A stretch of DNA of 45,938 bases, filler included, from a bacterium (GTDB lineage Bacteria > JACRDZ01 > JAQUKH01): the NCBI GenBank assembly GCA_028719205.1. It is 11 parts of 11 records of this genome, joined end to end, with 100 filler letters (N's around TTAATTAATTAA, not from the genome) between each part and the next. Parts side by side here need not be neighbours in the genome. Positions count along the whole stretch, not along the records: positions 43,387 to 45,938 come from JAQUKH010000068.1; 10 more parts are not named here. The stretch is one strand, 5' to 3'. Both the position numbers and the translations under genes were made by a program. Within the stretch, counting starts at the first letter, position 1. Each line of letters begins with the position of its first letter. The notes under the pieces are model-generated. The model saw only the letters and a program-made list of their open reading frames with translations. It searched no databases and was not told the origin of the DNA. Of this stretch, positions 43,387 through 45,938 are shown in pieces.

Positions 43387-43604
43387 CCCAAAGATTTTTC
43401 AATTGCTTCAAAAAAACCTTCGTAAGGAGGCATTCCCACCGAACCGGAAATGTCGGTGAGCATAGGTCCCTGAATTAGATTGACGTCGACAACATAAAGA
43501 CCTGTTAAGGATGCTTCAAGCTTACGGGCAATATAAATCCCGTATTCCAGCGCTGTAAGGCTATTGGCTGAACCATCGGTAGGAATAAGAATTTTTTTTA
43601 TCAT
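43387..43604 (-). CDS. Universal stress protein, 3'-truncated
   Basis: MIKKILIPTDGS..S..AL......A....A.L.GLYVVD; RBS AAGGAG. Confidence 0.9.
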
Positions 43605-43632
43605 GACAACTCCTTTTTAAAAAAGGACATGA

Positions 43633-44304
43633 TTATTTTTGCTTTTCTTCATAATGTTTCAAATTATTAAGTAAATTAGCTATGTCTTTATCATCCCATA
43701 AATCAGCAGCATTGGCAGCATCACCATCCTTGTCCTGAACTTCCGGAACTTCCTCTTCAAAAACAAGAAACTTCCCTATATATTTCCCTCTTTTATAGGT
43801 TGCCTTTTCTTTTACCTGACCGCTTTTGAAATATGCGCAATATTCCCCTTCTCTTTTATCGTTTTTAAAATATCCCTTTTCCTTGACCTGACCGTTTTTA
43901 TAGTAACAAGTATACTCACCTTCAAATTTGCCGTGTTTGAAATTTTCTTCTTCTTTTAATTGTCCGCTTTTGTAATAAATCTGATATTTGCCGTCGAGCC
44001 GTCCACGTTTGTAATATTCCCTCTCTCTGATATTCCCGTTCTGAAAATAAGATGTATATTCTCCATCCATCCGGCCATGCACATAATTAACTTTTTCTCT
44101 CACCTGGCCGTCATTATAATAAGTTGCTGCGGGGCCATGCTTTCTGCCGTTAGCAAAATTAATCTGCGCCAGAATTTGACCGCTCTTGTAATAGGAAGTA
44201 TATTCTCCTTCCAGTTTACCATTCTTGAAGTATTTATTTTCTCTAATAGAGCCATCGGAGAAAAACAATTTTTCTTCTTTTAAATCATTATTTGCTTTGG
44301 TCAT
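43633..44304 (-). CDS. MORN-variant repeat protein (YwqK-like)
   Basis: Six to seven 24-aa repeats of G.Y..YY.SGQ.K....Y..G; acidic C-terminal tail. Confidence 0.88.
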   Translation of the reverse strand: MTKANNDLKEEKLFFSDGSIRENKYFKNGKLEGEYTSYYKSGQILAQINFANGRKHGPAATYYNDGQVREKVNYVHGRMDGEYTSYFQNGNIREREYYKRGRLDGKYQIYYKSGQLKEEENFKHGKFEGEYTCYYKNGQVKEKGYFKNDKREGEYCAYFKSGQVKEKATYKRGKYIGKFLVFEEEVPEVQDKDGDAANAADLWDDKDIANLLNNLKHYEEKQK

Positions 44305-44427
44305 AAAAATAAATTTCTTTTAAAAAGGTTAGAATAATCCCCGGCTGAAAACTTTACTGTTAAAAAAGATATACTATTTTAAAATATTAAGACATTGCTT
44401 TTTTTAAACAATCATTTATGATAATGC

Positions 44428-44706
44428 AACTAAAATTAATGAGCCAAGCTGAACTCAGTGAAGCGTAAGGCGAACTATCCCAGGGGCGAAGCGACGTGGG
44501 GAATGAGACTCGACGAAAACGAATCCCGACAGATCGGGATGAAGTTCGAGTCGTTAGTCGAATTAATGAAACTCGTCGAAATCGAGCGAAACGAAGATTG
44601 AGAAGTAAGTTGAATTATCCCGCGTTAGCGGAGGATATCGAAAATATCCGTGGTATCCCCGAAGCATAGCGGAGGGGGATAATTTAACAGTTAAACAAAT
44701 TTAGTT
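44428..44706 (+). ncRNA. Candidate multi-branched structured RNA of unknown family
   Basis: GC/purine-rich island in AT-rich intergenic DNA with several nested stems, repeated tandem-GA internal loops and a promoter-like TTGCTT-N16-TATGAT just upstream. Confidence 0.55.
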
Positions 44707-44791
44707 TAATTTTTTTTAAAAAAAAGATATTAGAATTCTCTAATAGAGTATTTTATTAAATAGCTGTAAGTATACATAAAGAGCATAATTA

Positions 44792-45938
44792 ATGTTTAAT
44801 CCCAATTTAGATACGACAAGATTAGCTATCATCGGGCCGGGCCGGTTAGGTACATCTTTTGCGTACAAATTCGGCCGGGACAATAAACGCGTAGCCATCT
44901 ATTATCACGACGCGGAAGTCTGTAAAGCAATAAACAGAGATCACCTGAATCCTTTGCACCTGACCGAAGACCTGGCTAATCGTCTGGGCGGAATGGATAA
45001 TGTTCCCCGTCTTTCCAACAAAGTTTATGCCACAAACGATCTGGAACACATCGTTGAAAACAACGATTTTATCGTTCTGGCCATAACCATGAACAGGCTG
45101 CCGGAATTTCTCAATTACCTTAAGCCGATGATTGACAAGAAAGCCGGCGACACATGCCTTGTCTCACCAATCAAAGGTTTGATTTCCGACGAAATATCCA
45201 AAAAGCTTATAACTCCTTCGCAGTTGATTAACAATAATTTATACAACTTAAAACACAAATATCAGTTAGCCTGTATCGGAGGACCGTTTTTTGACATTGA
45301 TATAGCATTGGGTAATCCGGTTTGTTTAACCGTCGCCGGCAAGAAATATATCGCTAATGTCATTAGAGAAAACTTGCTTAAATTCAACCGCAACGAAATG
45401 AATTCATATTACAACTTTGACATTGTCGGTGTCGAAGCCTGTGGCGCTTTAAAAAATATTGTTGCCAATATAAAGGGGCTGGCCGATTCGCTTAAGCTGG
45501 GAGATTCGATTCCCGGAACCATTTTTGCCCGTTCCGGTGTGGAAATCCGTTCATTATCACGTCTTTTAGGCGGAGGATTTCAGGCTTTCCACAGCCAGGC
45601 CGGCGTCGGCGATCTGTATGTGACAGTTTCATCTCTGGCCAGTAAAAATTACCGCTACGGGAAATATTTCTATGAGCTCTATACCGGCAATCCCATCGAA
45701 ACCAATTTGCAGGTTCTGGAAAAAATTGATGGAACTCCTGAAGGCCCCAATACAGTCAGAAACGTTTATAAATATCTGGAAAAGAAAAACATGTACAGTC
45801 CTCTTTTCTCCTGCGCCTACCGCATATTTAACGAGCCCGGCAATAAAGACACCATTAAAGACATGATTATTCAAGCCTGCCAGAATGATAAACGAACAAA
45901 AGAGTATATCAGCCAGGCATCCAGAATTATGTACCGTA
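44792..45938 (+). CDS. gpsA: NAD(P)H-dependent glycerol-3-phosphate dehydrogenase family protein, runs off the window
   Basis: Not in the ORF track. My translation gives AIIGPGRLGT, IKGL, GGPFF, DIVGVEACGALKNIVA, AGVGDLYVT..S..SKNYRYG, PEGPNT. Confidence 0.88.
   Translation, partial: MFNPNLDTTRLAIIGPGRLGTSFAYKFGRDNKRVAIYYHDAEVCKAINRDHLNPLHLTEDLANRLGGMDNVPRLSNKVYATNDLEHIVENNDFIVLAITMNRLPEFLNYLKPMIDKKAGDTCLVSPIKGLISDEISKKLITPSQLINNNLYNLKHKYQLACIGGPFFDIDIALGNPVCLTVAGKKYIANVIRENLLKFNRNEMNSYYNFDIVGVEACGALKNIVANIKGLADSLKLGDSIPGTIFARSGVEIRSLSRLLGGGFQAFHSQAGVGDLYVTVSSLASKNYRYGKYFYELYTGNPIETNLQVLEKIDGTPEGPNTVRNVYKYLEKKNMYSPLFSCAYRIFNEPGNKDTIKDMIIQACQNDKRTKEYISQASRIMYR

Follow-up and report, generated by a model that had tools for sequence, protein, structure and literature searches.

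The insert at ~44436-44693 of the window (the whole stretch of DNA that was analysed, 45,938 nt) is very probably not a dedicated RNA gene or leader but a place where modules of a modular, interspersed and probably selfish hairpin-repeat family, which extends across the Smithellaceae, have clustered. A 58-nt rod is present three times, together with a small GA-flanked hairpin and a block of three hairpins. These modules were found in tens to hundreds of dispersed copies, combined in varying order, and at the corresponding site beside a gpsA-like gene the insert was present, absent or different among related species. The rod unit consists of stacked 3-4-bp helices with near-invariant tandem G·A pairs, a structure that has been kept by compensatory changes.

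A preliminary description of this DNA had presented the region as a candidate novel structured RNA of ~280 nt, such as an sRNA or a gpsA leader. It had named many dispersed copies as one of the results that would speak against this reading, and had listed last, as an alternative, a composite non-autonomous palindromic element. The genomic copy count revealed many dispersed copies on both strands, and therefore the structured-RNA reading is unsupported; the insert was, moreover, missing from its site in most relatives. It was the last-listed alternative that was backed, both by the dispersed copies and by the polymorphism of the site.

Source contig and its genes

The insert is located on a 2552-nt contig, JAQUKH010000068.1 (C68), which corresponds to window positions 43387-45938 and carries three genes. 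These are the start of a universal-stress-protein gene, a MORN-repeat protein gene (43633-44304, minus strand, 223 aa), identified as an open reading frame with a match to Pfam MORN_2 (E = 6.4e-30), and a gpsA-like gene (44792-45937, plus strand). The last of these encodes a NAD-dependent glycerol-3-phosphate dehydrogenase with matches to Pfam NAD_Gly3P_dh_N and _C, and its 3' end is cut by the end of the contig. The spacer between the MORN-repeat and gpsA-like genes is 487 nt long.

The gpsA-like protein shared 85-98% identity with proteins from Smithella and Smithellaceae bins, and the gene was 97-98% identical to Smithella genes. Identity to the gpsA products of the five nearest genomes (two from the same genus and three from the same phylum) was 25-28%, and the window's assembly has an ordinary-type gpsA of its own, 26% identical to the gpsA-like protein of C68. 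When the assembly was searched with R1, a covariance model of the rod unit, the only matches were the three units on C68. On the basis of these identities and of the restriction of the repeats to this contig, C68 is a Smithella fragment, and it was most likely mis-binned into a genome to which it is unrelated. A BLAST search of the element against relatives of the assembly returned AT-rich chance matches only and was uninformative, the contig being foreign to this bin. Smithella are syntrophic degraders of alkanes and fatty acids and are known almost only through metagenome bins. A 2516-nt contig filed in a Desulfuromonas bin (L038) has nearly the sequence of a Smithella locus (L037), which suggests a second case of the same kind of mis-binning.

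Structure of the insert

The insert forms a purine-rich island of 45-54% G+C within a spacer of ~20% G+C. The plus strand of a 296-nt stretch was predicted to fold with a free energy of -81.8 kcal/mol (z = -2.74), and 2 of 200 shuffled sequences folded as well; the minus strand of the same stretch folded almost equally well (z = -2.38).

All of the pairings named in the preliminary description were found in the sequence. They included the hairpin at 44523-44540 and a 12-13-bp stem, 44609-44621/44676-44688, which was recovered with 92% complementarity in an inverted-repeat search. The opposed GA/GA loops are real and constitute a hallmark of the family (outer tandem: G 97 and A 101, then G 99 and A 101, of 103 distinct units). 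Two of the proposed stems have to be read differently. AACTAAA (44428-44434) does pair with TTTAGTT (44700-44706), but this closing stem is not part of the element, as it also occurs in sites that lack an insert. Similarly, GACTCGA (44507-44513) is complementary to TCGAGTC (44546-44552), but the 7-bp stem is not the register backed by family covariation, which in the unit at 44501-44565 pairs 44507-44510 with 44556-44559 and 44511-44514 with 44550-44553, with a 2-nt bulge. Minimum free energy (MFE) folds of this unit also selected the family register.

The view that the insert belongs to no known RNA family was upheld: Rfam 15 gave no matches at the gathering score and otherwise only E values above 4, the best sub-threshold match in the window reaching 16.4 bits where 66 were needed, and no tRNA or tmRNA was detected in the region by ARAGORN. 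The hexamer pair said to precede the element, TTGCTT-N-TATGAT, was absent from the plus-strand list of the promoter scan. On the minus strand, the scan reported a -35/-10 consensus match at 44418-44447 that faces the MORN-repeat gene, with the -35 hexamer within the inserted repeat and the -10 hexamer in the conserved upstream box.

Open reading frames at 44496-44669 (57 aa) and 44458-44601 (47 aa) would allow the purine richness to be explained by a small basic protein. The probability of this explanation is practically nil; it was ruled out because there was no Pfam match above the cut-off (best E = 0.0083, 16.7 bits compared to 23.1) and because the frames cross from one module into the next at borders that in relatives are shuffled or missing.

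Module composition of the insert

The insert was resolved into a mosaic of at least four repeat modules, all on the plus strand. The matches of a BLAST pile-up in 110 loci broke off sharply at 44459/60, 44501/02, 44565 and 44621, and from these borders Modules A and D and units U2 and U3 were defined; an additional start was seen at 44654. Unit U1 (44437-44481) is a short tandem-GA rod hairpin that matched R1 with 43.2 bits (E = 1.7e-7). It overlaps the most repeated block, Module A (44459-44501; pile-up borders 44459/60 and 44501), which is made up of the 3' half of U1 and a hairpin in which GA/GA flanks a GCGAAGC-type core. The core lies at 44487-44493 in the window, and many copies have kept both it and the flanking GA/GA. 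Unit U2 (44501-44565) carries the extra apical hairpin at 44523-44540; it scored 50.4 bits with R1 and contributed a row to the alignment of the rod unit (A1, below), and its MFE fold was that of the family model (-22.7 kcal/mol, z = -2.93). Unit U3 (44564-44621) matched R1 with 76.9 bits (E = 3.3e-16) and is full length in sequence, with a degraded stem; its fold was weak (-5.9 kcal/mol, z = +0.48), part of the pairing having been lost. Module D (44605-44684) is a block of three hairpins closed by the stem 44609-44621/44676-44688, the one recovered in the inverted-repeat search. There were 13 copies of it in 400 kb of genome G063, and its copies showed some compensatory changes.

Iterated nhmmer searches in 118 loci found 63 copies of Module A, 53 of U2-type units, 72 of U3-type units and 21 of Module D. 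Elsewhere the modules occur alone, reordered or tandemly amplified, and in L127 a second copy within one genome had the order A-U-U-D. In L145 (1194-1700), a two-unit composite was repeated in tandem three times or more and was interrupted by an assembly gap (N's); it lies just downstream of the likely end of a tRNA gene.

The summed contig depth over 44440-44513 was 167 and 100 in two public DNA runs, compared to ~7 on the flanks. Many contigs in these runs end at module borders, continuing into unrelated sequence, and one contig joins 44435 to 44784. Since contigs break at module borders, the repeats are a likely cause of short orphan contigs such as the 2.5-kb C68, which are then mis-binned. 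Two runs that were labelled as RNA-Seq, but are probably DNA, covered parts of the gpsA-like gene only.

The same site in related genomes

Eighty loci around the orthologous gpsA-like gene, taken from genomes of Smithellaceae species, were used for comparison. Both flanks of the insert were located in 31 of them, one of which was spurious, leaving 30 usable loci. The spacing between the flanks was 11-16 nt in 19 loci (empty sites), -29 nt in two, where a deletion had taken one flank edge, and 60-322 nt in the nine that contain an insert; in the window it is 258 nt. Altogether, 21 of the 30 loci had no insert ahead of the gpsA-like gene. The inserts that were present differed in length and content, and some were of quite other repeat types (L043-L047, L049 and L055).

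The site is framed by an AT-rich host hairpin. Its 5' arm (44428-44434, plus strand) was kept in loci with 11-16 nt between the flanks, and its 3' arm and T-run (44700-44717, plus strand), which lie in the right host flank segment (44694-44730), were conserved in related loci with and without inserts. In empty sites, the stem 44428-44434/44700-44706 encloses no more than a small AT-rich loop, and the same T-run comes after it. The closing stem is therefore host sequence, and its loop is an insertion hot spot.

A different insert of ~60 nt, with a GC-rich hairpin (CCGGCTCC..GCCGG), occupies the same hot spot in L043, L045-L047 and L055 (~2340-2420), from which it follows that several repeat families use this loop. 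A second, different dispersed repeat, which contains CACGGGTATGAA and its complement, was seen in L049 (~2250-2340), L058, L128, L136 and L150, and in L049 it likewise fills the hot spot upstream of the gpsA-like gene.

Outside the repeat, a 36-nt upstream box belonging to the host (44400-44435) was 100% identical in at least 12 related loci, representing at least 12 species, although the surrounding spacer had diverged. The box includes a 12-nt palindrome (44413-44424), both arms of which change together in distant loci (L110-L116), and it may serve the MORN-repeat gene, the gpsA-like gene or both as an operator or a promoter element.

These comparisons bear on the proposal that the insert is a single-copy sRNA of ~280 nt, a protein scaffold or a cis-regulatory leader of the gpsA-like gene. 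It is a G+C island in an AT-rich spacer, the z score of its plus strand is low, and, placed behind a conserved box, it precedes the gpsA-like gene in the same orientation. Such a role is nevertheless extremely unlikely. It is already contradicted by the absence of the insert from most of the usable loci and by the dispersal of every module in many copies; furthermore, the other inserts vary in length and content, the closing stem belongs to the host, the minus strand folds almost as well and there is no Rfam match.

Covariation in the rod unit

The core unit of the family is a 58-nt rod of 3-4-bp helices separated by tandem G·A pairs. Of the 35 distinct units in alignment A1, the window supplied 2 and other loci the remaining 33. 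The aligned hairpin starts from a foot of 4 bp, above which a tandem G·A leads to two 4-bp helices, the second accompanied by a 3'-side bulge of 2 nt; these are followed by another tandem G·A, 4 bp, a G·A with one additional A, and then the apex. At the apex, a covarying pair closes a 5-nt loop, or its place is taken by an additional hairpin of 6 bp, as at 44523-44540 in the window.

Standard pairs occupied 93.5% of the 649 cells in A1, compared to 81.0 ± 0.7% in shuffled alignments, none of which (0/500) reached as high a value. Twelve of the 23 pairs change on both sides, and there were 85 such cells as against 18.7 in shuffles. When the partners were slid by 1-3 columns as a control, the paired fraction was 26-37%. 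Covariation across related units, a check that the preliminary description had proposed, is thus strong. Because the copies are paralogues, these counts show that the hairpin has been kept, and not in which molecule. MFE folds of single units reproduced the hairpin model without the alignment, and R1 recognised three units in the window. Some units retain the outer "adapter" stem and swap the inner stems.

The departures in 103 units comprised 25 of the G·U type and 27 of the A·C type. As the two types were equally represented, there was no sign of RNA-specific tolerance. When folded as RNA, the purine strand was 2.5-5 kcal/mol more stable than its complement (L143, L106 and U2 of the window), and folds with DNA parameters showed little difference between the strands.

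Copy number and genomic placement

A BLAST search with 44436-44693 against five Smithella genomes (E≤0.01) gave at least 50, at least 21, at least 57, at least 39 and 2 matches, respectively; for the first four genomes scoring was limited to 40 candidates each, and their counts are therefore lower bounds. The matches were on both strands and on many contigs. R1 matched 48 of the 61 genomes of the family (E≤1e-3), with counts from 1 to at least 90 (91 candidates scored), and 13 genomes were without a match. In a class-wide sample, R1 matched 22 of 121 genomes at E≤1e-12, and 20 of these 22 were also in the family sample. All of these copy numbers come from draft genomes and are lower bounds.

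An unselected 400 kb of G063 contained 37 arrays, an average of about one every 11 kb, and their neighbours were ordinary genes of metabolism and housekeeping; five of the 37 overlapped a called open reading frame by more than half. A short hairpin unit with many dispersed, mostly extragenic copies is what is generally understood by an interspersed palindromic repeat. Also in G063 (C7, ~31260, 35370 and 311570; L156 and L170), a third small repeat was noted, a C-rich/G-rich hairpin (CCCCTCTTT..AAAGAGGGG) that often adjoins arrays.

When the neighbouring genes of the 37 arrays were oriented with respect to the purine strand, 15 arrays were ++, 11 -+, 6 +- and 5 --, against a background in which 266 of 341 adjacent gene pairs were co-directional. 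In other loci, which were picked by their similarity to the window and for which the open reading frame calls are crude, 17 arrays were ++ and 5 --. The preference of the arrays for the sense strand is thus roughly 3:1. Eight of the 37 arrays start between -2 and +4 nt from the stop codon of the upstream open reading frame and so lie ahead of any terminator. Many others are placed directly behind terminator-like hairpins with T-runs (L124, L137, L138, L142, L144 and L146), and 11 of the 37 lie between divergent genes, as does the cluster in the window. The left ends of arrays abut A/T-rich sequence.

These data have to be weighed with regard to the possibility that the repeats are functional RNA modules, the GA-studded rods in 3' UTRs and operon spacers serving to block 3' exonucleases or to bind protein. 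The cluster would then modulate the gpsA-like transcript, and such a function would be compatible with mobility. Exonuclease blocking or protein binding has been reported for REP/BIME and BOX elements. The excess of arrays in the sense orientation, in G063 as well as in the similarity-picked loci, agrees with this reading, as do the arrays that begin at an upstream stop codon, the strong covariation, the near-invariance of the tandem GA and the greater stability of the purine strand as RNA. It is doubtful all the same. G·U-type departures were no more numerous than A·C-type departures, unlike in typical RNA families; many arrays are situated behind terminator-like hairpins or, as in the window, between divergent genes; copy number ranges from 0 to at least 90 within one family, the site being empty in most relatives; U3 of the window has decayed; and the replication strand is another possible source of the orientation bias.

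Ends, targets and partner enzymes

No mobilising enzyme linked to the repeats was found when Y1 and DDE_3 transposases were looked for in five genomes. The units within arrays lie on one strand, mostly head-to-tail, and the only adjacent inverted pair in the 400 kb of G063 was 31293(+) and 31353(-).

A TAATGAG or TAGTGAG start, together with an inverted end motif followed by TA, was found in L044, L105, L057, L124, L137 and one array of G063. Ends of this kind, and left ends that abut A/T-rich sequence, would be expected if the arrays were cut-and-paste MITEs with TAATGAG terminal inverted repeats, mobilised by a DDE transposase encoded elsewhere and duplicating a TA target. This is unlikely for several reasons. 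The inverted right-end motif (L044, L105 and L059) is missing from the window copy and from most arrays, the TA is indistinguishable from the inverted repeat itself, and the content of the arrays is highly variable. The DDE_3 loci, which were present in four of the five genomes, contained neither the end motif nor an R1 unit, and there was no DDE_3 match in G053 despite at least 90 units. No target-site duplication was resolved, as filled and empty versions of the gpsA-like site are not separated by a clean insertion; at a second site (L066, L093 and L069), the filled/empty comparison also gave no clean insertion, and the inserts were nested in further unrelated palindromes.

Y1 transposase genes were present in three of the five genomes, at 8 loci, and two of the 8 had a module within 1.5 kb. 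If the repeats were a REP/REPIN family moved by a RAYT, one would expect short imperfect palindromes of high copy number that are mostly extragenic and strand-asymmetric, as for single-strand recognition, and these properties were observed. It is highly improbable, however, that they are such a family, given that two of 8 is, by estimate, about what chance would give at this repeat density, that both of the module-adjacent Y1 genes are bracketed by other, unrelated palindromes, that G041 has no Y1 match despite at least 85 units and that the units run head-to-tail and not in inverted pairs. In L153 (1300-2100) and L150 (1150-2300), Y1 (RAYT-like) genes are bracketed by REP-like palindromes of their own; with such genes, Smithella seems to hold classical REP/RAYT systems as well.

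Proposed origin and role of the repeats

We propose that the repeats spread as non-autonomous selfish DNA, by way of a single-stranded intermediate in which the purine-rich strand is folded. They would land at A/T-rich gene ends, that is, at stop codons, in T-runs behind terminators and in AT-rich loops, and the arrays would then grow and shuffle through tandem duplication and recombination. Folding as single-stranded DNA is plausible as well, since the GCGAAGC core is a known DNA mini-hairpin of unusual stability (PMC13037366). The cluster at the gpsA-like locus would most likely be a passenger that at most alters how far the conserved upstream box stands from the gpsA-like promoter region; if transcribed, it would add stable hairpins to that transcript. 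The passenger interpretation is weakened by the covariation, the sense bias of ~3:1 and the placement behind stop codons, which could equally fit selection at the RNA level.

Tandem G·A pairs at regular intervals, an outer stem that stays constant and inner parts that can be exchanged give the unit an unusual architecture, and there is a small chance that a dedicated recognition system is involved. More specifically, the 58-nt rod may, at a low probability, be a dedicated RNA or single-stranded DNA recognition platform for a putative Smithellaceae protein, the outer stem acting as an adapter and the inner stems as exchangeable cassettes. If this were true, the rod would represent a new mobile or regulatory system, for example a non-autonomous element copied via a single-stranded DNA or RNA intermediate, and such an element would target stop codons and terminators, which would go beyond another REP-like repeat.

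With the insert read as a cluster of probably selfish repeats, the region drops out as a candidate for a new large structured RNA, and a repeat family that is abundant in Smithella and appears to be undescribed is documented. Its covariation and periodic tandem G·A make it a test case for whether repeats are kept for DNA mobility or for RNA function.

Comparison with known systems

Full-text searches of the openly available literature found no description of these repeats, and term searches in the main text of two Smithella genome papers (PMC5606693 and PMC13685792) found none either. The insert resembles the large non-coding RNAs and riboswitches of Rfam 15 in being a G+C-rich, hairpin-rich intergenic island; it differs from them in having no family match, in being multi-copy and in the polymorphism of its site. 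The core of Module A is shared with the GCGAAGC mini-hairpin, which is a structural curiosity of 7-8 nt and not a repeat family. In the K-turn, a tandem G·A is found beside a 3-nt bulge on one strand. The rod differs from this box C/D-like motif, as its tandem G·A pairs lie symmetrically between helices and its only bulge is of 2 nt and is 4 bp away from the nearest of these pairs.

The BOX elements of Streptococcus pneumoniae have the form boxA-boxB(n)-boxC. As in the present family, there are start, middle and end modules, the middle ones in variable number; intergenic copies number ~100 or more, the predicted hairpins are stable and a transposase is not known. BOX elements belong to another phylum, and to our knowledge a tandem-GA periodicity is not a feature of BOX.

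REPs carry a GTAG foot, which is absent from the foot of the Smithellaceae unit; the latter is also longer (58 nt), and its 4-bp helices are parted by tandem G·A. The units described here are arranged mostly head-to-tail, whereas BIME units regularly alternate in orientation, and in contrast to REPIN/RAYT systems no RAYT flanked by Smithellaceae units was found among the 8 Y1 loci in three of five genomes. The family nonetheless resembles the REP sequences and BIMEs of enterobacteria and pseudomonads and the REPINs (PMC2817692 and PMC3116915) in several features, namely short imperfect palindromes with more than 100 copies per genome that are mostly extragenic and often at gene 3' ends, their occurrence in mosaic clusters of several module types and a copy number that varies among relatives.

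The likeness to MITEs of the Correia/NEMIS kind (reviewed in PMC3184786 and PMC2229807) lies in small size, non-autonomy, TA-bounded short inverted ends, location near genes and possible co-transcription. The difference is that the content here varies by module, with no one fixed element, and that neither a partner insertion sequence, looked for at DDE_3 loci, nor a proven target duplication was found. The family is best read as a new, lineage-restricted set of interspersed mosaic palindromic repeats akin to BIME, REP, BOX and MITE elements, apparently undescribed but an ordinary kind of repetitive DNA.
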